Positions 17,994 through 55,491 of a DNA stretch of 64,000 nucleotides are shown piece by piece; position 1 is the stretch's first letter, and the number at the start of each line of letters is the position of its first letter. Made by a program: the position numbers and the translations under genes. This DNA is from Schmidtea polychroa (lineage: Eukaryota): assembly GCA_044892525.1 (NCBI GenBank), contig CM097885.1, forward strand, positions 27,592,001 to 27,656,000, in the 5' to 3' direction. The notes beneath the pieces are model-generated. The model worked only from the letters and a program-made list of their open reading frames with translations, was not told the origin of the DNA and searched no databases.

Positions 17994-18299
17994 TAAAGAA
18001 ATTTTATTTTCAAAAAATCCTTTCCAGAAAATCAATCTTTAAAACAACTCCCAAAATTTACCTTAAATCCTTTCAAATCCAAAAACTGACTCACAAATTA
18101 ACATTAGATACAACCCGACAAAAAATGACACTGATCGCGTCTGTGTGCGCATACAAACACAAACACCATCTCCGAATCCAACGTGCACACAGACGCGAAT
18201 TAACCTCATAATTCACCAATTATAATAATTCAAATTTGATAAAATTTATGAGGATGAAGGCTCTTTTTAAAATTTTACTACTATCCATACTGGTGGGTC

Positions 18300-26405: not shown

Positions 26406-27378
26406 ATGATTTGTGGTAAATTCGAATTATGTATATTTGATCAAACATCACCCAAAGCGGTAAATGAATTTGGGGCATTTGAGGAAGTTTTTCATATGAA
26501 TTCAATTATCGATAGTAGAAATGATATCGAGTTTTATATTAATGGTTCGCAAACTGAATATTTAGATTTGAACGATACTTTATTGACTGTTCAGATCAAG
26601 TTTGTAGATAAAGATAGAAAAGTTTTGGATGTCAATGCAGATGTATTACCAAACAATTTCCTGTTTCATATTCTTTTTAAAGATGCAGTGTTGGGATTTA
26701 ATAATATCAAGATTGAGGGTGGAAATAATGCATTCATTCACAAAGCTTTAATAGAAACTATTTTAAATTACAATTCTGATACTAAAAATACATGTCTTAC
26801 TCCTATGGGTTATGTGGCAAAAGATGATGAAAGAAAAAAATTTGTTAAAGGCTCAAAGCTTTTCACCATGTGCTCATCATTACAACTCGATTTTGTGGAT
26901 CAACCAAAATATTTACTAGCAGGAGTTAATGTACACATTAGAGATTCTACATTATCTCTTACTAGTACAGGTGCACCAATATGTCAATTAGTTGATGCAA
27001 AATTATTAGTGAGAAGATTTCGAGTGGACCCATCAGTATTAGCTGGGCATCAATTAGTTTTAATTCAAAACATGCAATTTAGATATTAGAAACAAAGGAA
27101 ATTGTACAATTTGCTATTGCTAAAGGTGCTTTATCATTCTACAAAGAACAAATATTTGGTGTTAGAAGAATGCCAAATTTTATTCTGATAACATTTCAAA
27201 GTGAAACACAATATAATGGATCATATACTGCTTTCAGCTGAATTTTCAAAAACTTTGGTGTTACATCATTGACTTTGTCAAAAAGTACTGATTATAGAGA
27301 AACATATACTCAGGATTTCGACATTAATAATTACTGTGATACATATATGCAGAGTATTGTTAGAAACTATGATAAATA
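26406..27378 (+). pseudogene. Maverick/Polinton major capsid protein (double jelly-roll, F54H12.2-like family), frameshifted and truncated
   Basis: Contains ELCIFDQ, IEFYINGSQTEYLDLNDTLLTVQIK, NFLFHILFKD, KALIETILNY..TK, DFVDQPKYLLAGVNVHI and AKLLVRRFRVDPSVLAGH. After a frameshift it continues as GALSFYKEQIFG..MPNFILITF..YNGSY. All match the motif series I recognise for this family. Confidence 0.88.
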
Positions 27379-27409
27379 ACTGTAATTCGGCAAAACAATC
27401 TGGAAGCGA

Positions 27410-27625: not shown

Positions 27626-28932
27626 GTGACCTTCGAACTCACCATCAAAAGTCCTTTTGAATGATATATAACTTGTAAGGTTTGAAAAACATTTAAGCTT
27701 GAACACCCTTTGAAGGTTATTGACCCACCATAAACTTTTGAGATTATGACCATCATACTTAGGTCCCAAATACCTGTGAAATGATGTATATATTATAAGG
27801 TTTGAAAAATTCGAAGGTTTTTTACCATTTGAAGGTTAAGGACACACCATACACCTTCGAAGGTATGACTATCATACCTACCTCCCAAGTACCTTAGAAT
27901 TATAAATATATTATAAGGTTTGTAAACATTTGAAGGTTATTGATGCACCATACACCTTCGACGAGATGACAATTTAATAGATCTCTTCAAGACCTTTCGA
28001 ATGATACCCTTGGTTGAAGGTCTGACCTTATTTGTCCTTTGGAAATTCAAATATAAAAATATGATGAGTGATGCCGATGAGTCATCATAGGATGAGTCAT
28101 ACAGATGAGTTATATAAAATATTTAAAAAAAATAAAAAATAGAATATATATAGGGGGTGATGAGTCATATGTCTTTGTTCCGTAAAGTGATGAGTGATGA
28201 GTCTTTGTTCCTGGCTCCTCATCCTACCATACTATTGCCAGATAACACACAAACTCACACGGATTGCCCGATAACACACAACCTTCTACTTCATGTCAAC
28301 CAAAAGTCGAGTAAAAAGTTCCAGTGGGCGTACAGCACAGTTTTATAAATTCATTATATTTGATAATATATCGTTAAATAAATCATCAATTCTGCTAAAT
28401 TATTTTCCTGAATAAATAAATATTCAAAAGATTAATTAAACATAAAAAAATTAATTTTTTTACAGGTATTAAATATGTATAATAACTATTTTAAAAAATG
28501 TTAATTGCAACAAGAAATTTACAAAACAATTTTAATGACCTGACCCTGAATCAAAAGCACAGTGAAACTATTACATGTTTACTCTGCGAGAGTTTGAAAA
28601 GGTAAAGTTTAGTACCCGACACGACAACGCCTGACAAGGGTTTCACGTATGCACTGTACGTAATTCGCGAGGTAAAATATTTTTGTATCACCCCCTTTAC
28701 ATAACTGTATTTTCAAGAAAATTACAATAACCTCATAAATTCAAATTAAATAAATAATATTAATGTAAATGATCAAATGTACTACATATTGTTTTAAAAT
28801 GAATGCATTTGTTTAGAATAAACATTATAATATGATTATTATGAAAATTAGAGTAGCTTAATGAATATTTCAATTACGTGGCTAATAATCTAAGCATGTC
28901 CATGCGATACCGTATTGGATAATAAATTTTTA

Positions 28933-32523: not shown

Positions 32524-35500
32524 TTAAAATTTTATTTTTCTTGCTTTTATGGAAGCAAATTTATCCAATACATCATTTATTTTGATTTTGTCACAGATAT
32601 CGCTTTCAATAGCAATCAAAGACAGGCCAACTAGTCTTTCTTGAGAATTGGTTGAGCGTAAATAATTCTTAATTAGTTTAAGTCTGGAAAATGATTTTTC
32701 GCCAGCTGCTACTGAGACTGGTAGTGTTAATAATATTCTCAAAGATACAACTATATTTGGAAATATATCAAATAAATCATTTGAATAAATATACTGCAAT
32801 ATATCTAATGGATCAAAACTATTAAGTTAAGTTATGGTGTCTTTAAATATACACAGTTCGTTACATAATTCTGAAGAACTTATATCTATATCTTCACCAT
32901 CAGTTAACACATTATGTAAATCTGTACATTTATTTCTTAGTATCTCATTATCCAAATTATAAATTTCATTAAAATTTATGAGAAATTAAAACTTTTCGGC
33001 ATCAAATCTTTCGACTATTGGGTTAATTGCACTGTCAACAATTGGAAGAAAAAATGAAATTTTATAGTTTTTTTTTCCGGGTCTGTCGGTCTTTCATCTC
33101 GACATTCGTAGTTAAACATACGTTTTTACGCCTACGTAATGGATTTTCTTTAAATTGAGGAGCTATGTCAATATCATGTGCCAAAATTGTAGCTTTTTTA
33201 ACCTTCAAATGGTATTCATTTGTACCAACGCTAACCGCGTTAAGGACAAAAATATCTACCATATATTTTTGTATCAAAATGTAATTAAAAAAAATTTTTT
33301 TTAAGTTCATTAGTTTTTTATTTACATTCAAATATATAAAACAAAAATAAAAATTCAAAAAACTATTCAAAATTTTAACCAAAATAATATAAAATGGACT
33401 TAACATAATAAATTTCTTTAATTTTTCAATTATTATGACAAGCAGGACAAATATATTTTACATGGTTTTTGCATACATAATTTTTACATTTATTACATTT
33501 TATTGTGGTTTTTTCCGTTCTGATAGGACAAGTAGAACACATGCCTCTTTTCGAAGCTTTAGGCCAAAAAACAACGAATGGCCATCTTCTAGATTTTCTT
33601 TTTGTAGAATAACAGGATACCATTTTATCTAAAGTATCCACTCCGCCTTTTGTGGCATTATAATATTTGATAATTTCAGGTTTACGTTGAGGTTCATTAG
33701 TTATAACTTCATCAGACAAATGTAGAGTACTTTGCATCACTACGCATCGATATTTTTTAGGTACATAAGATACTAGTGTTGTATCTTTTGTAAAAACAAA
33801 TTTTGATGTATATTGTGGCAAAGATCTTGTATTCAAAATTTCTGGTGGGATTGTTGGTTTATTTTTTCTTAGTGTACCCACCATTGTTATAGATTTTTCC
33901 AGGAGTTTTGGCCAAGCTGATATGATGTGAAAAAATTGTCGAGTGTTATGTTGTGACCTTTGAGACCCTTCACTAAATCTAGTACAATTCTCATACCTTG
34001 ATTTGTTCCGGGAGCAGCATCCGGTTGTTTTCCTAAATATGGCTGTATTTTCCAAGCGTAGTAAGACTTGCTGCAAGCTGCAATCCAAAATTTAATCCCA
34101 TATTTCGCAGGTTTACTTTTCATATATTGGCGAAAAGGACATCGACCATGAAAACCAAGTAGTTCTTCATCAACTGTCACATTCTCTGATGGATTATAAA
34201 ACATGGGTAACCTTTCACTCCATGCATTCCACAATTCTCGGATTGGCGCAAATTTGTCATTCATACGTCTTTCTGACCGGGTTTCTTTTTTATCAAATCT
34301 AAGAATTTTTGAAATATTTTCAAATCTTTTCAATGGCATGGTTGCACGTAACAAAGGTCTACCCGTAGTTTCATGCCATAAGCTTTCAGTTGCTTCATTT
34401 TTTGACTTATAAACACCCGCTAAAATCAAGCATCCAAAATTGGAATAAAGTTCAGTTGCATCCAAATCCTTCCAACTATCTCCAAAAACGGTGTTTCCTT
34501 CACTGTTTGAGTTTTTCAAAATCATATTTTCAATAGCTTTCGGAAAAAATATCATGAATGCACTGTTTATATCAGTGATATGTCAAATCAAAAATCATAT
34601 GTTTGTTGTAAACAGGTAAAAACAAATCATGTTTGAACAGGAATTTCATTATAGACATTTTTGTCCACATTACAGTCAACGTGCATTTTTTTATACCTAG
34701 AAATCTGTATGACACCATAAAATAAATTAAGCGGCAAATTATTAATTTAAAAAAAAGAAGAATTTACATTGAAAAATCTTTCAAACTTAAGTTTGTATTC
34801 AGGCGTTATTTACATTTAAAAAATAATTTTGACAAAAATGTCAACAATACCATATAAAGGTTAAGTATATTTTTAAAATTTTCATCTAAACGAAATTCTT
34901 TAAAAAAAGTTATTAAATTATTTAAACTATTTGTTGATTCATTTAGGTTGGTACTTAAAGATTGAAACATCTTGCTCACAACATTAATCCTTCTTAAAAT
35001 GTCCTACCAAATTATCAGCGAACAAACAAATTCGTAGTCAAGCTGCAGTGCCAAAGATTTAGCTTCAGATTTTGTGTTGTTGTCATTTCTGTCATTATCA
35101 TGGATGGCAAGTAAAGCGTCTAAATAATCACCAATATTGTTTTTTATTGGGCTAAGAGCATCAATTCTTGATTCCCATCGTGTATCCGATAAAGGTTTAG
35201 GCGTCATTTTGCTATATTGTTTAAAACATCCCACCAATTTGTGGAAGCACTAAAAAAATTATAAAGTTCTTGTATAATGCCAAAAAAAATTATAGTTTCT
35301 GTATTACCTTTAGCAGCATCACATACTATTAGATTCAATGTGTGAGCTGCGCATGGTACAAAAAATGCTCGAGGGTTCTTATCCAAAATGCGTTTTTGAA
35401 CACCGCTGTGTTTACCACGCATGTTAGAGCCATTATCATAGCCCTGTCCACGTAAGTTTTTTAAATTTATATTTAAATCTTCTAACTTAGCAACTATGCT

Positions 35501-36722
35501 TTTAAACAAACCTTCGCCAGTAGAATCAGCTATTTCTACGAAACACAAAAAATGTTCTTCTACAGTAATTTGATTGCTTTCGTTTTTATGGACTAATCTG
35601 AGAATAATATTCATTTGTTCAGTGTGACTGATATCACGAGTGTATTTAATATTATGGAAAAATATTTAGCATTTATCACCATCTCGACAATAGCGTCGAC
35701 TATTTTCTTTGAAATTAAGGATATTATTTCGTTTTGAATATTTTTTCCTAAATAATGCACTGTGTCCTTTTGAGTATTATGAATTTTTGCGAGATTGTTT
35801 TCCATAACCATATCAAATTTAGAGAATAGTTCAACTAATTTTAAGAAATTACCATTGTTATTTTGGAAAATAATATCTGACGAGCCTTGAAGAGCTAAAT
35901 TTTGTTTAGCGAGATATTTTATTATTTCAACAATTCGTTCTAACACATCGCGCCAATGTCGTTTTTCTCTTTCATATACATTTTCAAGTTCAGTATCTAT
36001 TGTGCTAAACTTTTCTAATCGTTTTTTTACATCAACCCACTTTATAAATGATGTTAAATGGGATTTAGTTACTTCATGACTACTCAGAGTTTTGATAAAT
36101 TTTGCCAATTTGAGTAACCATCTGTGGTCAAAGAATTTGTTCCGCCTGCAAATAATTTGCAACATGCACAAAAAACACAATTTATAGAACATGAATATAT
36201 AAGCCATGTTCGTGAAACAGTATCTTTATTTGCTATCTTACGATAGTAATAGTTATTACTCAAACTACGACCACAATCGTCTCGACTATATAATTTTTAT
36301 TCTATCGGTATCATCGAACCTTGCTAAATAATAATTTTCCGAAGTTTGTCATTTATAACTTTGGGCCAAGTAGCTGGATCATTTGATTTAAATGAAATCA
36401 ATACTTCATTTTGCCTCACTGTTTCACTTACTGTTCCTGAAGTTGTTTGGGGTGATAAATGTAAATTAGATTCACATTCTGTGGTCGACGTGGTAGCGAT
36501 ATTGTTATGTCCTTCGTGTTCATGTGGTAAAGTTAAGGAAGGTGAATCAATAACCATTTTGGACTGTGAATGAATGTAATTCTTTCGGTTCATTACTGTT
36601 TGCAGAAATTTCATCCGTTTTTTGAAAGAATTTGTTTATTTGACCTGTTACCTTCTTTTGTTCCGCATCCCGTATCGCTTTTCTTTTGCGGCACTCTGCT
36701 CCAGATAATTTTTTTCTCCATT
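32524..36722 (-). pseudogene. hAT transposase, multiple frameshifts and a piggyBac insertion
   Basis: Fragments in order: SNDPATWP, LAKQNLALQG..NNGNFLKLVEL..YLGKNIQNEII, RGQGYDNGSNMRG..PCAAHTLNL, LSDTRWESRIDAL, LTLPVSVAAGEKSFSRLKLIKNYLRST. Confidence 0.95.
33202..34860 (-). mobile_element. Internally deleted piggyBac element (PGBD4-like transposase pseudogene, 34555-33426) nested in the hAT transposase
   Basis: TTAA at 33198-33201 and 34861-34864, with imperfect TIRs CCTT.A.ATGGTATT. Motifs TVDEELLGFHGRCPFRQYMKSKPAKYGIK, DNFFTS, YNATKGGVDTLD and a C-terminal Cys-rich domain are present. Removing it restores the hAT frame ENFKNILKKATILA. Confidence 0.95.
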
Positions 36723-38460: not shown

Positions 38461-40285
38461 CAAATGCGCAGATTGACTGCTCAGCCTTCGATTATTCAAA
38501 CGATGTGTGTGCAATTTTCTCTATATAGTGATTCACACTGTCAATATGCAGAGCTCCATAAGCACTGTTGTGCGTTTGTGCGATTTTGTTATGAAATTTA
38601 ATTATATTATATTACCGAGCTAAATCTTTTGGTTTTCTTTGATTTTTTATACTTAAATATTGAAAATAGACGAATATAAGAAATTTTAGAAAAATTTAAT
38701 AAATATCAATAAAGTTATCAGTAATTGGAATTCAAATAGAGACTCACAGGCTCTGTTGTGTTTTAGGGTTAATAAAGTGTTTGATATAAAATAATTGGTA
38801 AACAAAATCTCCAAGTTTTTCAGATGAGGTGGCAGCAGTAGGGGTACACAGATCCCGACAAACCACGGGCCAACCCCCTACCCCTGCTAAGGATTTTTGC
38901 TTTTTCCTAAAAAACAGGATTTTTATGTAGGTCAATCCAAATTTATGATTTTTAAAGATTTTTTATAAAAAATTATGTAGAACAATACCAATTTATTTAA
39001 TTTTTCAAATCGACTTTTAAATCATATTTTATATAGTTTAATTAATATTTAGGTCTCACACACACTATATAGTTTTAGGGTAGAAAAAATGGTCTGTATG
39101 AAATGGGCAATAAATAATGGATATCTCATTAACGTTTAACCTCGCTAAAAACAAACGGGGATAGAGGCCTATATTGGCTTGCTAATATGAAGCTGAACCA
39201 ATGTGTAGAATACAGTATATTAAGGCCTATTTTAGTTCTCAGACTTTTTGGATATGTTGGGTATTGTCGGTGAAATTAGAAATGAATAACTATCAATCTG
39301 ATTCCAAGCGTGTCTTAAAATATCAACAAGAACGACAACTTATCTATATTACCAATATTTATTGTTTATCACAATCACAATCGATTTGACATCAGTAGAG
39401 AGAAGTGTGCTCCATGACTCATCGTTTTTTGTCATTTTTTTGCACTACCCCCCCCGATGACTCAGCGCAAAACAAAGACATATGACTCATCGATGACTCA
39501 TCCATAGCAACAGCGGTAACTGGGTCAAGGTTATATGACTCATCCATAGCAACCGTGGTAACCACGGTAACTAGGTCAAGGTCATTCTATTTTTAGTAAC
39601 TAGGTCAAGGTCATTCTATTTTTAGTAACAATGTCACGTGACGTCATCGATGACTCATCAAGGTCGTCCTATTTTTAGTAACAAGGTCACATGACGTCAT
39701 CGATGACTCACCAAGGTCATTCTATTTTTAGTAACTAGGTCAAGGTCATTCTATTTTTAGTAACAAGGTCATATGACTCATAATTTTTGAAACAAAGCCA
39801 ACTGACTCATTGTTAAAGTACATATGACTCATCATTTTTTTAAACAAAGACATATTTAATATTTAAACAAAGACATTAAAACAAATATTTAAATAAATAC
39901 ATTTAAACAAAAATTTAAATAAATACATTTAAACAAATTTTGAAATAAATACATTTAAACAAAAATTTAAATAAATACATTTAAACAAATATTTAAATAA
40001 ATACATTTAAACAAATATTTAAACAAAGACATTTAATCAAATATTTAAACAATGACATGTAAACAAATATTTAAATAAATACATTTAAACAAATATTTAA
40101 ACAAAGACATTTAATCAAATATTTAAACAATGACATGTAAACAAATATTTAAATAAATACATTTAAACAAAGACATATAGACAAAGACTCATCGATGACT
40201 CATCGAGGTCAGTGTCGTGTTTTAAGGTCAAGGTCATATTTAAATTTCCAAAGGTCAAATAAGGCCAAACCTTCACACAAGGGTA

Positions 40286-40871
40286 TCATTCGAAAGGTAT
40301 TTGAGAGGTAAATATGATGGTCAAACCCTCGAAGGTGAATGGTGGGTCCTTGGCCTTCAAAGGGTACAAAACCTTCGAATTTTTTCAAACTATAATATAT
40401 TTATCAAACAAAAGGTAATACAAAGGTAAATATGATGGTCATACCCTCGAAGGTGAATGGTGGGTCCTCGATCTTCAAAGGGTAAAAAACCTACGAATTT
40501 TTTCAAACTTTATAATATATATATATCATTCGAAAGGTATTTGAGAGGTAAATATGATGGTCATACCCTCGAAGGTGAATGGTGGGTCCTTGGCCTTCAA
40601 AGGGTACAAAACCTTCGAATTTTTTCAAACTATAATATATTTATCAAACAAAAGGTAATACAAAGGTAAATATGATGGTCATACCCTCGAAGGTGAATGG
40701 TGGGTCCTCGATCTTCAAAGGGTAAAAAACCTACGAATTTTTTCAAACTTTATAATATATATATATCAGTCGAAAGGTATTTGAGAGGTCTATCTAATGG
40801 TCATATCCTCGAAGGTGTATGGTTGGTCAATAACCTTTAAAGGGTTAAAAACCTTCGAATTTTTTCAAACT

Positions 40872-40907
<36 letters not shown>

Positions 40908-41128
40908 TCGAAAGGTATTTGAGAGGTAAGTATGATGGTCATACCCTCGAAGGTGTATGGTTGGTCAATAACCTTCAAAGGGTCAAAAACCTTCGAATTT
41001 TTTCAAACTTTATAATATATATATCAGTCGAAAGGTATTTGAGAGGTCTATCTAATGGCTATACCCTCGAAGGTATATGGTGGGTCAATAACTTCAAAGG
41101 GTGTCCAAAATTAAATATTTTTCAAATC

Positions 41129-41177
<49 letters not shown>

Positions 41178-42240
41178 TTCAAAAGGACTTTTGATGGTGA
41201 GTTCAAAGGTCCAAGGGTCGAAGGGTCCAAGGTTCAAAAATTTTAAAACCTTATAATATACATATCAAACAAAAGGTATTTGAGATGTAAGTATCATGGT
41301 CATACTTTCAAAGGTTTATGAATGGTCCTGAACCTTCAAACCTTCAAAGGGTCCAAAACCTTTAAAAATTATACATATAGATATATACATGTCAAATAAA
41401 AGGTAATACAAAGGTGAGTATGATGGTCATACCCTCAAAGGTCATACCACCGAAAGGGTCCAAGGTTCAAAAATTTTAAAACCTTATAATATACATCAAA
41501 CAAAGGTATTTGAGATGTAAGTATCATGGTCATACTTTCAAAGGTTTATGAATGGTCCTGAACCTTCAAACCTTCAAAGGGTCCAAAACCTTTAAAAATT
41601 ATACATATAGATATATACATGTCAAATAAAAGGTAATACAAAGGTGAGTATGATGGTCATACCCTCAAAGGTCATACCACCGAAAGGGTCCAAGGTTCAA
41701 AAGTTTTAAAACCTTATAATATACATATCAAACAAAAGGTATTTGAGATGTAAGTATCATGGTCATACTTTCAAAGGTTTATGAATGGTCCTGAACCTTC
41801 AAACCTTCAAAGGGTCCAAAACCTTTAAAAATTATACATATAGATATATACATGACAAATAAAAGGTAATACAAAGGTGAGTATGATGGTCATACCCTCA
41901 AAGGTCATACCACCGAAAGGGTCCAAGGTTCAAAATTTTTAAAACCTTATAATATACATCAAACAAAAGGTATTTGAGATGTAAGTATCATGGTCATACT
42001 TTCAAAGGTTTATGAATGGTCCTGAACCTTCAAACCTTCAAAGGGTCCAAAACCTTTAAAAATTATACATATAGATATATACATGTCAAATAAAAGGTAA
42101 TACAAAGGTGAGTATGATGGTCATACCCTCAAAGGTCATACCACCGAAAGGGTCCAAGGTTCAAAAGTTTTAAAACCTTATAATATACATATCAAACAAA
42201 AGGTATTTGAGATGTAAGTATCATGGTCCAAGTTTGAAGG
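40286..42240 (+). repeat. Satellite arrays in the left TIR: about 120-bp units (partly as 240-bp dimers), then about 232-bp units
   Basis: AAAGGTA motifs at about 40292, 40411, 40532, 40651, 40772, 40910 and 41029. CCAAGGTTCAAAA at about 41227, 41460, 41690, 41923 and 42154. Confidence 0.95.
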
Positions 42241-42898
42241 TCAAAGAGTCTAAGGATCCAAGGTTTAAATTTTTCAAACCTTGTAATATACATATCAAAC
42301 AAACGGCAATACAAAAGTACTCATCGATGACTCATTTATTTTTTGAACAAAGACAATGACGCGCCCATGGGATTTATTATTTATTACTATCATTAGTATT
42401 ATTATTATTTATTATTATTAATTTCAATATTATTTATTATTATCAATAGTATTATTATTATTTTCGAAGATATTATCAAAATTTATTATTAATATTATTA
42501 TTATCATCAAGTTTTAATTATCAAGGTAATTTAAACAAAGACTCAGCCGCTGAGTCACCAAGGTCGTTCTATTTTTAGTAACAAAGACATCTATTTTTGT
42601 TCCGGCGGTTTATTTTTGTTTTAATAATCGATTACGTAATAATTTAATTTTGTTTAAATCGTTGATTATATTATTTTTTTTGTCGTTCTATTTTTTGTCG
42701 TTCTATTTTTAGTAACAAAGACATCTATCAAACAAACGGCAATACAAAAGTACTCATCAATGACTCATTTATTTTTTGAACAAAGACAATGACGCGCCCA
42801 TGGGATTTATTATTATTAATATCAAAATTATTATTATTATCAATATTATTTATTATTATCAATAGTATTATTATTATTTTTATTATTATTAATATTAA

Positions 42899-42977
<79 letters not shown>

Positions 42978-43214
42978 ATTATATTCATGTCTTTGTTAAT
43001 CATGCACGTTTATTGCAAAGTCTTTGTTAATTATGCAAGTGTATTGCAAATTTATTAGTCATACCTTGATATTAATTTTACACACATACTCAATCCATTA
43101 TTATTATTGCAAGTATTAGAGAAAAACCTAAAATATTTCCACAGACACAAGTCTATTCGAAAGTATACATGCTAGGATTACACACCTTAAGGGTAGAAAA
43201 ATATTTCTGAGTGA

Positions 43215-44350
43215 TTGTGTGTGCAATAGCCAAAAATAATAAATTTTATCAAATACATGTAAATTTTTTTAAAAAATCTATGTGTGTGTTATTGGTAGAG
43301 TGTGAGTGTGTAAAATATGAAATTTTATTAAATACATGTATAAATTTAGGTAAATTTTAAGAAAAATCTATGTTTTTTTGTGTTTGTGTGTTACGGGTAT
43401 AGTATGTGTGTGCGTAAATATGAAATTTTATCAAATACATGTAAATTTAGTTAAATTTTATGAAAAATCTATGTTTATTGTCTGTGTGTGTTATGGGTAG
43501 AGTATGTGTGTGTGTAAAAATTTTATCAAATACATGTAAATTTCTTTAAAAAATCTATATGTGTGTTTGTCCTATGGGGTAGAGAATTTATGAAAAATCT
43601 ATATATGTGTGTGTTATGGGGTAGAGTATGTATGTGTAAAAAACTTTTATCAAATACATGTAGATTTCTTTAAAAAATCTATGTGTGTGTGCTATGGGGT
43701 AGAGTATGTGTGTGTGTAAAACTTTTATCAAATACATGTAAATTTCTTTCAAAAATCTATGTTTTCTGTGTGTGCTATGGTTAGAGAATTATTATGGGTG
43801 TATGTGTGTAAAAATATTAAATTTTATCAAATACATGTAAATTTCTTTCAAAAATCTATGTTTTCTGTGTGTGCTATGGTTAGAGAATTATTATGGGTGT
43901 ATGTGTGTACAAATAATAAATGTTATAAAAATCATGTAAATTTCTTTAAAAATCTATGTTTTCTGTGTGTGTGTGTGGTATGGGTAATTATTATGGGTGT
44001 GTAAAAAACTTTTATCAAATACATGTAAATTTCTTTAAAAAATCTATGTGTGTGCTATGGTTAGAGAATTATTATATGTGTATTTGTGTACAAATAATAA
44101 ATTTTATAAAAATCATGTAAATTTCTGTAAAAAATCTATGTTTTCTGTGTGTGTGTGCTATGGGGTAGAGTATGTGTGTGTAAAAAACTTTTATCAAATA
44201 CATGTAAATTTCTTTCAAAAATCTATGTTTTCTGTGTGTGTATGTGTGTGTGCTATGGGGTAGAGAATTATTGTGTGTGTATGTGTGTAAAAATATGAAA
44301 TTTTATCCAATTTCTTTAAAATTTATGAAAAATCTATGTTTTTGTGTGAA
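43215..44350 (+). repeat. Minisatellite of about 70-85 bp inside element A
   Basis: TTTTATCAAATACATGTAAATTTCTTTAAAAAATCTATG-(TG)n-CTATGGGGTAGAG is repeated more than ten times. Confidence 0.92.
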
Positions 44351-44494
44351 TTATACATGTATTGCACATGCTTATTTTAACACGGGTATATATGCTTAAT
44401 ATGTGATTATACTCTGAGTTTATCCGACAAGATATTTTGTCCCCCTATGGGTAATGTTCACACTCAACATGTTGCAAGTGTACTGCTCACAAGG

Positions 44495-44548
<54 letters not shown>

Positions 44549-44834
44549 TCAGAGTTTATCCGACAAGATATTTAGTCCCCGGATGGATAATGCTCATATA
44601 CAACATGTCTCAAAGGGCATATTATTAAATTCTGACTAATCAATGAAGGGGTAGAACAAAAATATATTACTTTTGTGGTATGTTAAAATCTTATTTTCAA
44701 AACATATTTTGACGCCATTTTCATTAGATGCAAGAACATTTTCATAATTATTTTCATAATTTTTGCATCGATTTCATGATTTTCAACATTTTCATCATTT
44801 GCATGAATATATTATTTTCAAAGTTATTTTCAAT

Positions 44835-44914
<80 letters not shown>

Positions 44915-45010
44915 TCGATGGGTTTTATATAGGGTATCCGAATGTTGTAATAAGCAATATTTTTATTGTTTTTCATGATTATTTTCTTCAAAATTCTTAT
45001 TTTATAAAGT

Positions 45011-45100
45011 ATGACTCATTCAAGGTCATATGACTCATCAAGGTCACGTGACTCATCGATTACATTTTGAAAATTCTAATTTGATTGGTTATATCTATTG
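45011..45100 (+). promoter_or_regulatory. Putative promoter of the RING cargo gene: three TGACTCA (AP-1 type) sites alternating with two TCAAGGTCA sites, then an inverted CCAAT box
   Basis: ATGACTCATTCAAGGTCATATGACTCATCAAGGTCACGTGACTCATCG at 45011-45058, ATTGG at about 45084, ATG at 45139. Confidence 0.6.
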
Positions 45101-45138
45101 TGATAAATGTAAAAACAAAAGTAATTTAGTTATTACTG

Positions 45139-45777
45139 ATGATTTCTACAAGTAAAACTGTTGAATATGATTGTGTAAATCACAAAATGTATTTGGTAAC
45201 TTTATTATTTTATCAATTTTTTTGTGATTTATAGCAAGGAACTCGAAATAATGAAAGATTAAGTCTATCCTATTCTGAAGATAATCGCTCATTGAAATTT
45301 TTTAACATAGTTGAAGATTTTATAAATAATCATGATGCTTACACTGATAAGAAAATCATAAATGTTTTAAAAATTTTCAAACATTCCTCTATTGAATATT
45401 TGATTGATTTATTTAATTATGATAAATGTATTTTGAAGTTTAGTTATTTAATGTATTTTGAAAAAACAGTGGTAAACAACGATACACTAAATGAATACTT
45501 TTGGAGTTGCATGTATTTAAGATTGAAACCGGGATATAGTAGATTGATTTATGAATGGATGGCGAAAGTCGATTTGATTGAAAATAAACTAACGGAAAAA
45601 CTGAACGATGTTAAGAAAATGTATTTAACTTGTTCAATCTGTAAAGAAAATCAAGTTTCGGTTTTGTTTTTACCGTGTGGTCATGTAATTGTTTGTTCTA
45701 AGTGTCACGAGAAGAATGTTCGCAATTGTCAAGCCTGTTCAACTTTGATTAATGAATATCATACTATATATATATAA
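45139..45777 (+). CDS. Spliced 199-aa protein with C-terminal IAP/MDM2-type RING finger (putative E3 ligase), cargo of element A
   Basis: Exon 1 45139-45195, a 39-nt GT-AG intron 45196-45234 ending in an in-frame TAG, and exon 2 45235-45777, open throughout. It ends CSICKENQVSVLFLPCGHVIVCSKCHEKNVRNCQACSTLINEYHTIYI. No BIR motif is visible. Confidence 0.85.
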
Positions 45778-46822
45778 TTTCTCAATACAAATTTCTAGTG
45801 TCTTTTTTTGAATCATGCACATTTATTGCTATTTTGTATATTTTTTAGTTAATTTATAAATATTATCTGACATTTTGATGTGTCAATGCAAATATATATA
45901 CAACAAATTAATCAATAAAGATTGTAAGTTCTTTTATATACTCAGAGTTTATCCGACAAGATATTTTGTCCCCCTATGGGTATTTGTCGTAAAGTTACTG
46001 GTCGCTAGGGTAATTAAGGCACATGTATATATATAAATTCTTAGGTAATTTAGTGAGAAATATTTGGGTAATATTTGAAATGTAACTTTATTCTTATTTC
46101 GAACGATTAATTTATTGATTAACTTTGTCATTTAAAAGGTAATTTAGTAAAATATTTTCATAGGTAATTTATTCATCTAATGTTCATTACAATAGTTAAC
46201 TTCGTGAGAAATACATGGTCATTAATAACAACATTGATTTTTTGGAGTAAAAATCTTTGTTCGAGTCATAATAGAAATATGATCATCTGGTTAACCAATT
46301 AAGGTGTTTATTAGTTAGAATTCTAATTTATTATCATTGTAATATATCTTTGTGAGAATAAGTTAAGATTTTTGAGCAACATTTACCAAAACATGAATAT
46401 TTTGTGCGAAGAATATTGGTTAAATATGTCATTTAAAATAATATTTTCAGACAATAATTAATAAATTCATTGGTTAATTTATATCTTTGTGAGAAATACA
46501 TGATCATTTATTGACAATTCATTAATAAATTTGGTATAAATTCTTTATCATTTGGAGTAATTTTTGTCAAATTTCTATTTTTTATTATTATAGAAACATG
46601 ATCGTTTGGTTAATTTACATGGAGTAATATGATGAATTTCAAGTGAAATAAAGTTTTCAGTTAATTAATATATCAAATTAATTTAAAATTGAGGATACAC
46701 TGATGAAAATTCTAAACAAATATTTGCATCCACACATATATTTGAACATCACATAATAAAAACTCATTAATTTAAAATATTGCAACGTAAAATACTGCGT
46801 AATAAATGATACTGAATCGCTC

Positions 46823-46892
<70 letters not shown>

Positions 46893-47286
46893 TGAAAAAT
46901 AATAATATGACATTGATATTAATAATAATATTAAATTAATACTTTGAAAATAAAATAAGAATTTTGAAGAAAATAATCATGAAAATATTGAAAATCGTAA
47001 AAATATCTTTTGGAAATAATATTAATAATAATAATACTTTGAAAATAATAATACTATGGACTTGTATTTGAAAATAATATACATTTAGCGACCAATACCC
47101 ATAGAGGGACAAAATATCTTGTCGGATAAACTCAGACTATATGTATAGCACTAGCAATAATAATAATGGATTGAGTATGTGTGTAAAATTAATATCAAGG
47201 TATGACTAATAAATTTGCAATACACTTGCATAATTAACAAAGACTTTGCAATAAACGTGCATGATTAACAAAGACATGAATATAAT

Positions 47287-47343
<57 letters not shown>

Positions 47344-47599
47344 TATAATAATAATAATAATATTAATAATAATAATATTAATAATAATAATAATAATAAT
47401 ATTAATAATAATAAAAATAATAATAATACTATTGATAATAATAAATAATATTGATAATAATAATAATTTTGATATTAATAATAATAAATCCCATGGGCGC
47501 GTCATTCTGAAAACAGATGTCTTTGTTTTAAAAAGTGATGAGTCATTGTCTTTGTTATAAAAAGTCAGCGATGACTACCTTTGTAGTACCTTTTGTTTG

Positions 47600-49075
47600 A
47601 TATGTATATTATAAGGTTTGAAAAATTTGACCCTTGGACCATCATACTCATCTTTGTATTACCTTTTGTTTGATATGTATATTATAAGGTTTTAAAACTT
47701 TTGAACCTTGGACCCTTTCGGTGGTATGACCTTTGAGGGTATGACCATCATACTCACCTTTGTATTACCTTTTATTTGACATGTATATATCTATATGTAT
47801 AATTTTTAAAGGTTTTGGACCCTTTGAAGGTTTGAAGGTTCAGGACCATTCATAAACCTTTGAAAGTATGACCATGATACTTACATCTCAAATACCTTTG
47901 TTTGATGTATATTATAAGGTTTTAAAATTTTTGAACCTTGGACCCTTTCGGTGGTATGACCTTTGAGGGTATGACCATCATACTCACCTTTGTATTACCT
48001 TTTATTTGACATGTATATATCTATATGTATAATTTTTAAAGGTTTTGGACCCTTTGAAGGTTTGAAGGTTCAGGACCATTCATAAACCTTTGAAAGTATG
48101 ACCATGATACTTACATCTCAAATACCTTTTGTTTGATATGTATATTATAAGGTTTTAAAATTTTTGAACCTTGGACCCTTCGACCCTTGGACCTTTGAAC
48201 TCACCATCAAAAGTCCTTTTGAATGATATATATATATATTATATGATTTGAAAAATATTTAATTTTGGACACCCTTTGAAGTTATTGACCCACCATATAC
48301 CTTCGAGGGTATAGCCATTAGATAGACCTCTCAAATACCTTTCGACTGATATATATATTATAAAGTTTGAAAAAATTCGAAGGTTTTTGACCCTTTGAAG
48401 GTTATTGACCAACCATACACCTTCGAGGGTATGACCATCATACTTACCTCTCAAATACCTTTCGACTGATATATATATATATATTATAAAGTTTGAAAAA
48501 ATTCGAAGGTTTTTAACCCTTTAAAGGTTATTGACCAACCATACACCTTCGAGGATATGACCATTAGATAGACCTCTCAAATACCTTTCGACTGATATAT
48601 ATATATTATAAAGTTTGAAAAAATTCGTAGGTTTTTTACCCTTTGAAGATCGAGGACCCACCATTCACCTTCGAGGGTATGACCATCATATTTACCTTTG
48701 TATTACCTTTTGTTTGATAAATATATTATATTTTGAAAAAATTCGAAGGTTTTGTACCCTTTGAAGGCCAAGGACCCACCATTCACCTTCGAGGGTTTGA
48801 CCATCATATTTACCTCTCAAATACCTTTCGAATGATATATATATATTATAAAGTTTGAAAAAATTCGTAGGTTTTTTACCCTTTGAAGATCGAGGACCCA
48901 CCATTCACCTTCGAGGGTATGACCATCATATTTACCTTTGTATTACCTTTTGTTTGATAAATATATTATAGTTTGAAAAAATTCGAAGGTTTTGTACCCT
49001 TTGAAGGCCAAGGACCCACCATTCACCTTCGAGGGTATGACCATCATATTTACCTCTCAAATACCTTTCGAATGA
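47600..49075 (-). repeat. Satellite arrays in the right TIR (mirror of 40286-42240 with fewer 232-bp units)
   Basis: TTTTGAACCTTGG at about 47700, 47930 and 48161; 120-bp units at 48240-49075. Confidence 0.95.
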
Positions 49076-52000
49076 TACCCTTGTGTGAAGGTTTGGCCTT
49101 ATTTGACCTTTGGAAATTTAAATATGACCTTGACCTTAAAACACGACACTGACCTCGATGAGTCATCGATGAGTCTTTGTCTATATGTCTTTGTTTAAAT
49201 GTATTTATTTAAATATTTGTTTACATTTCATTGTTTAAATATTTGATTAAATGTCTTTGTTTAAATATTTGTTTAAATGTATTTATTTAAATATTTGTTT
49301 ACATGTCATTGTTTAAATATTTGATTAAATGTCTTTGTTTAAATATTTGTTTAAATGTATTTATTTAAATATTTGTTTAAATGTATTTATTTAAATTTTT
49401 GTTTAAATGTATTTATTTAAAAATTTGTTTAAATGTATTTATTTAAATTTTTGTTTAAATGTATTTATTTAAATATTTGTTTAAATGTATTTATTTAAAT
49501 ATTAAATATGTCTTTGTTTAAAAAATGATGAGTCATACATACTTTAATAATGAGTCAGTTGGCTTTGTTCCAAAAATGATGAGTCATATGACCTTGTTAC
49601 TAAAAATAGAATGACCTTGACCTAGTTACTAAAAATAGAATGACCTTGATGAGTCATCGATGACGTCACGTGACATTGTTACTAAAAATAGAATGACCTT
49701 GACCTAGTTACTAAAAATAGAATGACCTTGACCTAGTTACCGTGGTTACCACGGTTGCTATGGATGAGTCATATAACCTTGACCCAGTTACCGCTGTTGC
49801 TATGGATGAGTCATCGATGAGTCATATGTCTTTGTTTTGCGCTGAGTCATCGGGGGGGGGTAGTGCAAAAAAATGACAAAAAACGATGAGTCATGGAGCA
49901 CACTTCTCTCTACTGACATCTGCTAATACAATTCCACGAAGGATTCACCACTCAAGACTCTAAACTCTGAACTTATTAAAACTGACAGTGGGTAATAGTC
50001 CAATCAATAACTGCCAAACTACATGTTTAATCGAACTCTCTTGATATATTTATACCACTCAACAGGTTCCTTTAACTTTTCTTTGCTTTCGGTTTCCGTA
50101 ACATTGTTTCGCCAAATGTCTGCTTATTTTTTCGTAGAGTTTCTTCACTCTATTTTTTTTCATCTTACAACTTCTGTTTTCGTTTTTTATTATCGCCTTT
50201 TTCAGTTTTGCATGGCTCATAAGTAGATGGTAGTGTGCCCGCAAGACCACATACCCCCCCCCCCCCCCGGCCGGAAATTTTTTTTTAAATAAAAGGTCAA
50301 GGTCATTTTATTTTCAAGGTCATATTTTAAAATTTAAATTTACAGAGTTCCCGCCAACGGGATTTAGTGAATATTCAAGTGAATTACTATAATTTTTGTG
50401 AATTTCATGTTAATTGAAAGAATATTTAAAAATTTAAGGTTTTATTGTTAATTCTAAGACAAATTTAATTAATTTCTTGATAATTTGCTATATTTTATTG
50501 ACTTGTTTTTTAAATAAAAATTATTTTTTATGATAGTTAGGTTAATAATTAGAGTTTTTACAATAATCAAGTGATAGGATAAATTATTTAATTTTTATGA
50601 TGACTTTGTAATGATAATTTGATTAAATAATTTTTTCATATATTTTCTAAGAATATTTCCATTTACGCATTGATGAACTTTTAAATATTGAAAATCTAAA
50701 GTTGAAACCAGCTAATTTATCATGAATTTTATTTGAAATCTACTTGAAAATTATTGTAAAATATACTGAAATTTGTGATTTAGTTTGGAAGATGTATCAT
50801 GTTATAATTGCTATAATTGGCTGAATCGATGAAGAATTATGATCAAACAATGAGAAATTATCATCCCTAGTTAGATATTTGATGGTAAATGTGGTGAAAT
50901 ATTTGTAGAAAATATTGATTTTAATGAATTTGATCTTTTAGTGGGCTCTTACTACATGAATTTATGTACTAAATTATTTCAATTGAAAAATGTTTGGTAT
51001 CTGTAACAATTAAATAAAATTCATATTTTGAAGAATTTTCTATGGATTTTAAAAGAATTGATCTATTAACGGGCTCAAGTGGGTGAAATTAAGGGATATA
51101 GCCGGTTGGATTTAGTAAGGGTTTGGTTAAGATGGGAATATATGATTTTTAAGGAATATATTCGGTCGGATGTTTAAAGGGGTAGAAATATTTGGTGAGG
51201 GATCGGTTAAGGTGGAAATGTTTTGAATATCTCTATTTAAATCGACAATTTTCTTAATGGTAAAATATCAATGTTTCAAGAGAAATAGTCAGTATTTAGC
51301 TATGAGTCAATAATAGTTCCTGTGAAATTATATCGTTTTAGGTTTATTAGGTTGTAATGAATGTAATTGCATAGTAATTTAGATTTATGTTTTACTTTAG
51401 AACCAGTTTCTATTAATTATCCACGGTTTTATTAAGTCGTTTAGGGTTAATGATCAATTAGGTGTTTATTTACTTGGTTTTGACAATGAAATATCTGAAA
51501 TCTTTAGAATTAATTGGGAATGATATCAAAGGTTATTGCTTTAAATTATTTACCTTTAATTAATATGTTATAGACGGATATTCATTGTGGGGATATCGGT
51601 GACAAAACTTGAGAAATATTGACTTAAAAGAGTTGGACATCGACAGCAAATAAAGAAAATTGAACATTATTGAAGGAAATTTATGATTTTAATTAGAAAT
51701 TAAATCGGTTGAATATCAGCTAAGGGTAAAATATGGTCATTTGAAGGAATATTGTTATCGGGTGGATAAATCTTTCAATGATATTTTGCTAAATTACCTT
51801 TTGCTAAATATTATTTTAAATGACAAAGTTAACCAATAAATTAGTCGATCGAAATAAGAATTCGGTAAAAGTTACATTTAAAATATTCCAATTATTCACG
51901 AATTTCTGATAAAGATATATATGAACATCTATTTCTCACTAAATTACCTAGGAATTTCTAACTGATATACATGTACCTTAATTTAATAATTAGTATACCC

Positions 52001-52611
52001 TTGCAACATGTTGAATGTGACCAGTACCCTTGCTAGCAATACCCTTAGGGGGACAAAATATCTTGTCGGATAAACTCGGAGTATAAGAACTTGCAATATT
52101 GATACATCAAAATACTGTTATTTAAAAAATTAACTAAAAATACTCAAAAATACTATTATCTAAGAATTCATTTACTGAATGATATCTTAAAATTTAAGAC
52201 TTAAATGATCTTGCTTTTAATATACATATGAATTGATTTCTAAAATAATCATGTTTTTCTATCAAACATGCATAAATTGAATATAAATTTGCTGAATGTG
52301 AAATAAACATGTTTCTTGCTAAAGAATTTACTAATTAATATCTCCGAATGATATTTCGCTGAAAGGTATATAAAATCTCTATGAATTTGTTAAATGTTTT
52401 CCTCAATATAAATTGTTAATTAGTTCCTAAAATAGTCACAGAATTGTCCTAAGAATATATCATCACCATTTGGTAGTTGCGCCCAATATATTTAATTACC
52501 AAGATTATTTCATATTATTCAATGTTTGAAAATTTTCTACATTATAGTACCGTCATTATGTATGGTAATAATTCATTTGACTTTGATATTGTATTGATTT
52601 ATATTGAGAAC

Positions 52612-52814
52612 TTACATGTATATAGTATGATATTCATTAATCAGTGTTGAACAGGCTTGACAATTGTGAACATTCTTCTCGTGACACTTAGAACAAACAA
52701 TTACGTGACCACACGGTAAATACAAAACCGAAACTTGATTTTCTTTACAAATTGAACAAGTTAAATACCTTTTCTTAACATCGTTCAGTTTTTCCGTTAG
52801 CTTATTTTCAATCA
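52612..52814 (-). pseudogene. 5'-truncated second copy of the RING cargo gene, in element B
   Basis: Reads IENKLTEKLNDVKKRYLTCSICKENQVSVLYLPCGHVIVCSKCHEKNVHNCQACSTLINEYHTIYM*, about 10 substitutions from 45575-45777. Confidence 0.92.
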
Positions 52815-54389
52815 GTGTAAAATTTTTATGAAATAATTTTCCAAGTCAAAATTAAATACAAATTTATATTAAATTAATTTCAAAGACAGATTTCAATTAA
52901 CCACTACTAATAAAAATAATAGTAAATGAAAAGGGTAAATTTTAAAACTAACTAATAAATTTAGAAAGAGAATGAGAATTGATAGTAATAATTAAATTAA
53001 AGTAAATTATGGACATAAATTTTTAATTAAAGTAATAATTTTTAATCTATTATAAAAAAGTTTGAATGATAGTCAGGTTTTGAGAAATGAAAATTTTAAT
53101 GAAATAGTTTTTAAAGAAAATTTAGATGCAAATTTTACAAATAATAATAATGATAATAATGATAATAAAATAATATTAATAAAAATAATAATAAAAATAA
53201 TACTTTATATTGCTAAGCATTAATAATGTAATTATATTTGAATATTTTTTATTCATGTATAACAATTAATTAAAACAAATATAAATAATATTAATAGATT
53301 AAATTAATTAAAATGGAATTGAGAAATGATGCAGTATATCAAATTATTGATCCAAGGGCTGTGGGAAAACATTATTTGTTTATAAATTATTACAATCAAA
53401 TATGTTTAAGTCAAAATTTAAAAGGTCAACCAGATACTTACAATAAAATACTTACAACAATGTATTTCTAACAAGCAGCTAGATACCAAATACTTTCAAC
53501 ATGATACCACGTACTAACTAACTCTCAAACAACCAGATACATACAACTAACTACTTACAATCAACTAAATATTCTTCATTGTATTTTATGAAATGCTTTT
53601 TAAATTAATTTTTTATCTGTCTTCAAAATATGTTTAATTACAATCAGTAGAAAAACCTTTTCAAAATGTCTAAATTTAACAAAAATGATGATTTTCATCA
53701 AAAAATGAATAATTGTCAACTCATCACTACGTGGGATTGATGATAATTTAAATTAAAATGAAAGACTATAGAATTCTAATTTACAAAACATTCTTCTTTT
53801 AATTGATTACTACTGACTTATTATTGCAATGTAAAAATCGCATTCAATAAATACTTATTGTTGATCAGTTTTATTATATATACTCTGAGTTTATCCGACA
53901 GGATGTTTTGACCCCCTAAGGGTACTGGTCGTAAGGGTATTGCTAACACTCAACTCCCACCTACCCATTTACTAGATACTAGATACCAACAACCAACTAA
54001 CAACTAGATACTAAGTACTTACAACCGACAAAAACCAAGTACTAAGCATTATCAACATACAACTATATAACAACAATCAGTAAACATTGTATAGATCATG
54101 TTGTTGAAAATGTTATGAACTGTGGAGATGATGAATGTGAATGTGGTAATAAATTTTAGTGTATATTTAAAGTATAATATTTAGAATTTCTTTGTTAAAG
54201 TTTTGTCTTGAATATTTTTACCAGTAACTTTGTAAACAATACCCATGTGACTTGTCGAGTGTGAGCAGTACCCTGGTGATCAGTACCCTTGTGAGCAGTA
54301 CCCATAGGGGGACAAAATATTTTGTCGGATAGACTAGGAGTATATATATTAATACTAATAATAATGAAAATAATTATGTTGATAATATA

Positions 54390-55400
54390 TGGCTCAATCG
54401 AAAGGTCTTAGATTGGGCTTTAAAATGAGCTATCGTGGAACAGTTTTCGTTGACGGGAACTCTGTAAATTTAAATTTTAAAATATGAAAAAACGAATGAC
54501 CTTGAAAAAATAAATGACCTTGAAAAAATAAATGACCTTGAAAAAATAAATGACCTTGAAAATATAAATATATAAAAAAAAATTATTAATCGGGAAAACG
54601 TTAATAATTTTGCCAATAATAATGATAATAATAATATTTATATATCAGTAGATAGATCTTGCACTGGGCTTTAAAATGAGCTATCGATCGATGAAATAAA
54701 ACGATGAGAACGATAACGTTTGGGCAAACGAAAACCATGTGCCCGCAAGACCACTTAATAATTATATGACCTTGAAAATGATTTTTGGTAAAATGTTATT
54801 AACTTTGTTATATTATTGATGATGATGATACCTTCAATAGCTCATTCGAAAGGTCTTGGATCGGGCTTTACAATGAGCTGTCATTGAATAATTTTTGTTG
54901 GCGGGAACTCTGTAAATTAAAATATGACCTTGAAAAAACAAATGGCCTTGAAAAATAAATGACCTTGAATAAATAAATGACCTTGAAAAAAATGACCTTG
55001 AAAAAAAAATGACCTTGAAAAAATAATATTTTGAAAAAATAAATGACCTTGAAAATAGTCTCGGAAAAACGGTAATAATCTTTCCAATAATAATGATAAT
55101 AATAATATTTATATATCAGTAGATAGATCTTGCACTGGGCTTTAAAATGAGCTATCGATCGATGAAATAAAACGATGCGAACGATAACGTTTGGGCAAAC
55201 GAAAACCATGTGCCCGCAAGACCACTTAATAATTATATGACCTTGAAAATGATTTTTTGTAAAATGTTAATAACTTTGTCAATATTATTGATGATGATAC
55301 CTTCCATGGCTCATTCGAAAGGTCTTGGATTGGGCTTTAAAATGAACTATCGATGAATAATTTCCGTTAGCGGGAACTCGACCTTGAAAAAAAAATGACC
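54390..55400. repeat. Subterminal tandem repeats of about 450-470 bp in element B, with runs of ATGACCTTGAAAAA
   Basis: TCGAAAGGTCTT.GAT.GGGCTTTA at about 54398, 54847 and 55316. Internal copies of the terminal motif GTGCCCGCAAGACCAC lie at about 54739 and 55210. Confidence 0.9.
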
Positions 55401-55491
55401 TTGACCTTTTATTTAAAAAAAAATTTTCCGGCCGGGGGGGGGGTATGTTGTCTTGCGGGCACATGGTTTTGCGGGCACACTACCATCTACT

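Follow-up and report, generated by a model that had tools for sequence, protein, structure and literature searches.

Introduction

Polinton/Maverick elements are recognised by AG..CT-type TIR ends and 6-bp TSDs, and in vertebrate Mavericks accessory regions flank the core (PMC8097293). Precedents exist for intron-bearing Maverick cargo, for planarian retroelements with apoptosis regulators and for large DNA viruses with IAP-like RINGs. According to excerpts of 10.1101/2022.07.12.499685, the cargo genes that nematode Mavericks carry (wasp proteases along with krma kinases) are intron-bearing, TIR-adjacent and exchanged between elements, features shared by the RING gene described here, whereas the RING gene encodes an unrelated protein family and is also amplified in coreless palindromes. 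The Burro LTR retroelements of planarians are likewise mobile elements with apoptosis and ubiquitin regulators, including BIR, MATH/TRAF and BCL2-like ones (PMC6431247, in excerpt), whereas the carrier of the RING gene is a DNA element with TIRs and has no BIR. In a planarian, smedwi-2 RNAi lifts the repression of Polintons (PMC8532177). Iridoviruses, entomopoxviruses and other large DNA viruses have RING-only 'IAP-like' proteins that are also short, carry an IAP-type RING and give the top BFVD fold matches to our protein; these matches, however, are confined to the RING (a TM-score of about 0.3 over the query) and reveal no common N-terminal domain.

In cIAP1, a core around Val573 binds the E2, the linchpin is Arg606, Phe616 works in trans, and the substitutions R606A and F616H each impair the protein (PMC6349121). 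The product of our gene resembles the C-terminal region of cIAP1, cIAP2 and XIAP in the sequence and fold of its RING, in its pre-RING helix, in a 12-13-residue tail with the trans-acting aromatic and in a weak UBA-like match. It differs from them in that no BIR or CARD was detected, in the family-wide loss of the linchpin Arg and the loop-2 Pro, and in belonging to its own clade. MDMX is an inactive RING that supplies its tail in trans (PMC7190642, in excerpt) and offers a functional analogy only; unlike MDMX, the A-type RING is of the C3HC4 IAP type, has no p53-binding part and is borne by a mobile element. RING-bearing IAPs are reported as nearly absent from sampled Platyhelminthes in an excerpt of PMC13159474, the main text of which does not name planarians. 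Our literature search found no paper describing this RING family, its altered RING surface, its linkage to TRAF or a host-like paralogue; repeat databases and supplements were outside its scope, and prior annotation is possible there.

Results

A RING gene in a palindromic Polinton derivative

The window is a 64,000-nt stretch of Schmidtea polychroa DNA (contig CM097885.1, positions 27,592,001 to 27,656,000). A sequence-only reading had proposed that it contains a 199-aa frame interrupted by a 39-nt intron and ending in an IAP/MDM2-type RING. The frame was borne out (Table 1): the spliced product has 199 aa, and since the intron carries an in-frame stop, the reading frame requires its removal. 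A Pfam scan gave PF13920 (RING) at E 3.6e-10 and no other domain over the cut-off, with no BIR or CARD detected. The best PDB sequence matches of the RING were cIAP2, cIAP1 and XIAP (E 1e-15 to 1e-12), a fold search agreed, and the RING superposes on cIAP2 at 1.4 Å. These matches make the RING one of the cIAP/XIAP type. It does not fit the MDM2/MDMX family, given the C3HC4 pattern and the absence of a p53-binding domain over the cut-off; the zinc ligands of MDM-type RINGs are C2H2C4. The earlier count of changes against element B was also reproduced: 10 codons differ, six synonymously and four non-synonymously, and every Cys and His is kept, in a comparison that spans 218 nt (67 codons of the RING end) of a fragment without the N-terminal part, intron or promoter.

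Table 1 Window coordinates of the RING gene, its carrier and the neighbouring element.
Feature	Position	Strand	Remarks
Element A, non-autonomous palindromic Polinton/Maverick derivative	39394..49914		10,521 bp, AGTAG..CTACT ends, 6-bp TSD GACATC
Terminal segment rich in TGACTCA/TCAAGGTCA	39394..40056	+	~91% to full-core Polintons with the same terminus
Motif cluster, 3 TGACTCA + 2 TCAAGGTCA, subfamily A only	45011..45055	+	20-nt exact match to the element's terminal repeat
Proximal promoter-like stretch common to A and B	45080..45107	+	TTTGATTGG (CCAAT-type) and TATA-position box; putative
RING gene exon 1	45139..45195	+	19 codons, ATG at 45139
RING gene intron	45196..45234	+	GT-AG, phase 0, 39 nt
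RING gene exon 2	45235..45777	+	180 codons plus stop; stop 45775-45777
Three predicted helices, weak IAP UBA profile match	45376..45513	+	Structure prediction, profile alignment
Long predicted helix before RING, at the place of the cIAP dimerisation helix	45535..45624	+	Structure prediction, PMC6349121
C3HC4 RING, cIAP/XIAP type, 12-residue tail	45631..45774	+	Profile, fold and residue comparison
Element B, second non-autonomous Polinton derivative	50222..55491		TSD CTCATA
218-nt 3' fragment of subfamily-B RING gene	52597..52814	-	94.5% to A

Within element A, the right arm of the window copy is missing the RING region, which longer copies have in both arms; these are 17-20-kb palindromes with the gene in each arm (e.g. 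L101-L105), and other A copies have the TSD CTTATG. No Polinton core gene was matched inside positions 39394-49914, and pPolB and integrase are absent, so that element A is a non-autonomous derivative and not a full Polinton/Maverick member. Over its first 660 bp it shares ~91% identity with the termini of full-core Polintons 16.8 kb long, which we infer are the elements likely to mobilise it. The RING gene itself was found in 0 of the 10 A-type terminus regions fetched. The elements sharing A's terminus and those carrying the B and C genes gave rve and Pox_A32 matches; the PolB baits for them are ~70% identical to a PF03175-positive ORF, and a related MCP scores 0.97 to PF21738 clusters. By these matches, such elements have the pPolB, rve integrase, A32 ATPase and double-jelly-roll capsid expected of a Polinton/Maverick. 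The label 'minor capsid' is our assumption from position and size only.

Elsewhere in the window, a broken Polinton major-capsid fragment (26370-27400) is followed at 27628-28200 by repeats related to A's subterminal array. Further ORFs, at 3933-5483 (-), 33426-34582 (-), 35204-36225 (-), 7828-8250 and 12170-12937 (+), and 17586-18038 (-), are, in that order, an exon of a host glycoside hydrolase of family 31, transposases of the PF13843 and DUF4371 families in fragments, and two related ORFs plus one further with no Pfam family over the cut-off.

Three subfamilies and their carriers

The RING gene family comprises three subfamilies (A, B and C) with hundreds of copies in the AT-rich, 781-Mb host genome. 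The best 40 of 2203 subfamily A candidates scored are about 99-100% identical; subfamily B, for which the best 150 of 4597 candidates were scored, is about 92% identical to A in exon 2; and subfamily C, accounting for about 109 of 150 scored rows, is about 50% identical to P0004. Tandem RING-gene arrays occur in the genome (G000) at C3:1769908-1774550, C1:8683502-8691134 and C2:188.52-188.60 Mb, with spacings of about 1 kb for A/B-type and 4-6 kb for partial C-type arrays.

The C gene lies tail-to-tail with PolB in 18/19 loci and is found within TSD-bounded elements holding core genes (L295-297 and L298-300). The B gene follows a same-strand PolB segment in 8/60 loci, taken as two overlapping sets of 30. 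Of two B loci traced upstream, one (L368+L090) has the integrase, both capsid genes, an interrupted PolB, the RING gene and the TIR, in the order INT-mCP-MCP-PolB-RING-TIR, and the other showed PolB only. An earlier idea that A/B genes are confined to coreless elements was overturned for B by these findings. Because B and C genes are situated inside full-core Polintons, we regard the gene as a genuine accessory gene, one that is handed on to fold-back derivatives as well. For subfamily A, PolB was present within 1.5 kb of the gene in 0/30 loci, and no full-core carrier was seen among seven A elements with long flanks; the further hunt for a full-core A parent was thin, covering nine more A and B elements. 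The A/B gene was likewise found in 0/10 A-type terminus regions, 0/7 full-core B-type elements and 0/6 D-type elements, which indicates that it is dispensable for most active families.

Several apparent carriers were rejected. At C1:251.24 Mb, what had looked like a full-core Polinton whose two TIRs each hold the gene turned out to be a nested insertion, the core being bounded by ends and a TSD of its own. In the vicinity of B copies (L106-108 and L355-356) and an A copy (L363), the PolB pieces apparently belong to nested or neighbouring elements, given their terminus-like surroundings, and short 'PolB' matches directly after B genes align to letters preceding the bait start, not to PolB. Two palindromic derivatives of 14.5 and 13.6 kb (L219-L221 and L041-L042) were also observed; each has a TSD, and each of their arms contains PolB (and the C gene).

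Selection between subfamilies and decay of single copies

That the accessory gene is under purifying selection had been proposed from the sequence, with dN/dS across copies as the check. Codon models were fitted to open frames only (30/30 A, 26/30 B and 17/19 C), using the final 150 codons, a restriction that favours low omega. Omega was 0.215 for two A and two B copies (LRT p 1.5e-4), 0.35 for 27 distinct A and B sequences (p 8e-6), 0.345 for 13 C sequences and 0.08 for seven sequences across A, B, C and a host-like gene described below, with omega = 1 rejected in the last two sets as well. The proposal therefore fared well for A versus B and within C. Subfamily A alone gave an omega of 0.51 that does not differ significantly from 1 (p 0.47); its copies, 98-100% identical, are too recent for selection to be visible. 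All of 30 A loci have an open exon 2, a figure biased by the choice of loci as best DNA matches. Between A and B, 507/543 positions of exon 2 are identical, against 144/288 in the 3' flank.

Single copies show a different pattern. Among 24 full B copies chosen via upstream non-coding DNA (five partner arms and one truncated copy having been dropped from 30), 12 are intact. The changes shared between B copies (14 synonymous, 23 non-synonymous) contain a modest synonymous excess, with p 0.005 or 0.06 depending on the assumed kappa, and the singleton changes (13 synonymous, 42 non-synonymous) look neutral; the two classes compare at Fisher p 0.17. A within-B omega of 0.39, biased by choosing copies on protein score, was discarded in favour of this set. 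Synonymous-leaning shared changes together with neutral singletons fit selection in source lineages followed by neutral decay after insertion. As judged from these comparisons, the family is under purifying selection between subfamilies (omega 0.2-0.35) and single copies decay neutrally.

The upstream motif cluster is a feature of subfamily A

The gene had also been thought to be co-regulated with its element through terminal motifs. The motifs are where they had been described, with TGACTCA at 45012, 45031 and 45049 and TCAAGGTCA at 45020 and 45038 (a span of 44 bp) and ATTGG at 45084, and TGACTCA is far above its chance expectation from composition of about 0.005 per 48 bp. The 127 ATTGG sites in the window mean that ATTGG alone says little. 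For the gene as such, co-regulation was not supported. Within 500 bp upstream, 30/30 A loci contain TGACTCA, as against 0/30 B, 0/19 C and 0/1 host-like loci, so that the cluster is neither an ancestral nor a family-wide control. The upstream similarity of A and B starts just past the cluster, and TGACTCA and TCAAGGTCA are dense in the termini of several Polinton families. On this comparison, the cluster probably represents a stretch of terminal repeat whose entry into the A promoter was recent. We take the two motifs to resemble AP-1 and NR5A sites, so that the insertion could change the expression of A. Closer to the gene, 30/30 A loci and 26/30 B loci retain TTTGATTGG, and the TATA-position box reads GATAAA in the A gene of the window and TATAAA in B.

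The intron

Intron length is 39 nt in A, 44, 45, 46 or 48 nt in B, 44 nt in C and 45 nt in the host-like gene. In the 24 full B copies, the intron GT is kept in 24/24 and the AG in 23/24 while the length shifts off-triplet, and exon 1 has in-frame 6-nt deletions in 10/24. Conserved GT-AG ends combined with a length that drifts off-frame make the A/B intron look real. The phase-0 intron of the host-like gene resembles that of C (20/2000 shuffles reach the score) and shows no sequence likeness to that of A (710/2000 shuffles). No intron-skipping joint was present in contigs of four runs searched with the A gene and four with the B gene; that X1, X6 and X7 are RNA runs is a guess, and this result neither shows nor excludes expression. 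A 185-nt contig of X1 spans the B intron unspliced, and other X1 contigs cover exon 2.

A helical N-terminal domain and an altered RING surface

The N-terminal part of the protein, previously unrecognised, forms in the predicted structure (pLDDT 88, from a 20-sequence alignment) five helices that precede the long pre-RING helix and the RING. A profile of this part retrieved only RING proteins of 149-200 aa, none with a BIR (8 of 8000 scored), and no BIR was among the families listed for the 20 aligned members. Relatives found by HMMER cover most of the length at 20-41% identity. The N-terminal part is thus a family-conserved helical domain, and the concern that the gene might be a one-off fragment of a longer host gene was removed by these relatives and the profile results. 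What kind of domain it is can be suggested with less confidence. Residues 48-93 of exon 2 aligned with a set of IAP UBA segments by hhalign over 46 columns (P 7.8e-4, probability 25%) with the G[FY] loop in register, and the score exceeded those of 100/100 column and 100/100 block shuffles; the set consists of 18 IAP segments, one of them probably not a UBA, cut around the G[FY]-type motif, which favours the match. A single-profile search of 43 IAP linkers returned nothing, fold searches with the N-terminal 68-aa model returned no UBA and nothing above Z 5.5, and the full model retrieved RINGs only. We therefore treat the UBA as a lead. Complex prediction of a homodimer of residues 95-180 gave a score of 0.02 and no answer; a protein atlas search gave generic RING clusters only (best 0.84), a viral contig collection no relative, and PHROGs nothing for the A protein.

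All eight zinc ligands of the RING are kept. The clearest signal comes from its surface, compared across a family in which 22 of 23 sequences allowed scoring. The loop-2 Pro is present in 0/22 family members versus 24/34 BIR-IAPs, the linchpin Arg in 1/22 versus 30/34, and I/V/L at the loop-1 place of cIAP1 Val573 in 6/22 versus 32/34. The A gene has Gln at the loop-2 Pro place; the linchpin place holds Ser in A and B, Gly in C and Ala in the host-like gene; and the loop-1 place holds Ile in A, B and C and Arg in the host-like gene. Phe or Tyr at the place of cIAP1 Phe616 in the tail is kept in 21/22 family members (Tyr in the A gene), the BIR-IAP control count being not comparable because some control RINGs are internal.

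A host-like paralogue and relatives beyond the genome

At C3:44.525 Mb lies a single-copy, host-like member of the family; the next DNA matches are partial, at about 64-85%, and no Polinton core gene was found in eight surrounding 10-kb stretches. It is 77% identical to P0004, which by eye runs across the host-like intron junction like a spliced product. In a quick tree, the host-like gene, on a short branch, forms one clade with P0004 and C (100/100), and A/B form the sister group. The nesting of the host-like gene inside the family fits domestication as well as capture. The wider RING family forms a clade apart from the BIR-IAPs (SH-aLRT 93, quick tree), and the multi-copy BIR+RING IAP of this genome keeps the Pro and Arg and falls outside the family. 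Old, broken relatives (L243-L254) have about 66-72% DNA identity to the host-like gene, and two of six are within about 5 kb of PolB sequence; these relatives may record an extinct carrier family.

Among metagenome loci, gene content was examined for 11 of the 80 retained, most others matching the RING only. On contigs L118, L112 and L128 the homologue adjoins a full TRAF gene, and L118 also contains an A32 ATPase and an rve-chromo integrase, which places this homologue within a Polinton. Intronless relatives at 20-30% identity occur in the L118 Polinton and on other gene-dense, virus-like contigs. On L112, L113, L115 and L128 the homologue was observed with TRAF and RING-H2 genes and an RNase T-like exonuclease, with no Polinton core in view. 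No TRAF gene was found beside A, B or C copies in the planarian genome.

Discussion

Our analysis makes it very probable that the RING gene is a selected accessory gene of Polintons. For the copy in element A, a narrower account is that it is a passenger: selection acted in a parent element that has been lost or was unsampled, and the burst of A copies would spread the gene, its promoter rearranged, with no need for it. This account, which concerns A only and is compatible with a partner function of the RING, appears possible but falls clearly short of an even chance. It would agree with the youth of the A copies, with the lack of any A copy with its own core among those with long flanks or with PolB nearby, and with the window itself, where element A has no gene in one arm and element B holds a fragment only; it is opposed by the divergence of A from B through mostly synonymous change and by the open exon 2 of all 30 A loci, biased as that sample is. 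Another account takes the host gene as the functional one, captured more than once by Polintons in which selection is past or weak. The solitary copy at C3:44.525 Mb with no core gene around it, its short branch, its identity to P0004, its fully supported grouping with C, its C-like intron and the broken state of half of the B copies chosen without bias would all suit such an account. We nevertheless consider it improbable, because omega is below 1 between A and B with no host gene involved, intronless relatives reside in the L118 Polinton and on virus-like contigs, and the nested position of the host-like gene would be equally expected after domestication.

As to what the protein does, an active, stand-alone homodimeric E3 ligase whose N-terminal helices choose the substrate, and which uses an E2 other than UbcH5 or dispenses with the linchpin Arg, would explain the intact zinc ligands, the Ile at loop 1 in A, B and C and the close superposition on cIAP2; the conserved tail length and aromatic would be needed by such a homodimer too. 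A surface in use is, however, expected to be conserved, and here the linchpin Arg and the loop-2 Pro are lost, the loop-1 hydrophobic residue survives in a minority of members and the host-like gene has Arg in its place. A stand-alone ligase is in our view plausible but less likely than a partner RING. The loop-2 Pro plays a part in E2 contact, and some active RINGs use other linchpin residues; with the loop-1 Ile kept in A and B, low activity is thus not proven. The loss of activating residues alongside retention of the dimer tail aromatic would make a partner or decoy RING the likelier reading. By analogy, the protein may dimerise with a ligase of the IAP/TRAF pathway and tilt death or immune signalling to the element's advantage, a proposal to which we give nearly even chances. 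In such a mechanism, the protein would use its pre-RING helix and its tail to pair with a RING of the IAP or TRAF pathway, and the dimer would either gain that tail in trans, as MDM2 does from MDMX, or be poisoned. The UBA-like part would bind ubiquitin chains, and the net effect, in those cells in which the element replicates, would be to tune death or immune signalling. Element A is probably a fold-back derivative that full-core elements sharing its terminus copy in trans.

A broader scenario would join these parts: Polintons would spread a ligase-dead, IAP-derived UBA-RING family, often beside TRAF, that hijacks or blocks IAP/TRAF signalling by RING heterodimerisation; one copy with its intron would have been domesticated as a single-copy host gene in a phylum reported without RING-bearing IAPs; and coreless palindromic satellites would keep the gene as their sole coding cargo because it is helpful. 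Taken as a whole, this scenario is doubtful. Polinton accessory genes are mostly uncharacterised, and the partner-RING proposal is a concrete hypothesis of how an element may tune host death or immune signalling. In this family, the passage of a gene together with its intron between Polinton and host can also be traced, and IAP-type RINGs on planarian mobile elements, together with one host-like copy, bear on cell-death control in planarians.

Other ORFs of note were seen on mobile elements of this genome. A 393-aa BIR + RING IAP lies beside a TRAF-like ORF (L233:1273-2454), presumably in a Burro-type retroelement, and is a candidate partner; among BIR matches like it, the best 150 of 309 candidates scored were mostly ORFs of similar length. 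A different, 382-aa ORF with an N-terminal RING lies between capsid and PolB in one Polinton (L050:5329-6474). A Bcl-2-like ORF (PF00452, E 1.3e-7, over the cut-off) occurs beside Polinton core genes at L043:5777-6232 and L059:5008-5462, the latter copy being split over two frames, with weak matches in L272, L273 and L280. A 168-aa ORF with a hydrophobic N-terminus and coiled-coil character (L272:7476-7979 and equivalents) is located near one TIR in four terminus families. At L270:2498-2953, and at the same place in many full-core Polintons, a conserved ORF of 150-170 aa that is head-to-head with the ATPase matches the TATA-binding protein (PF00352, E 2.3e-15).
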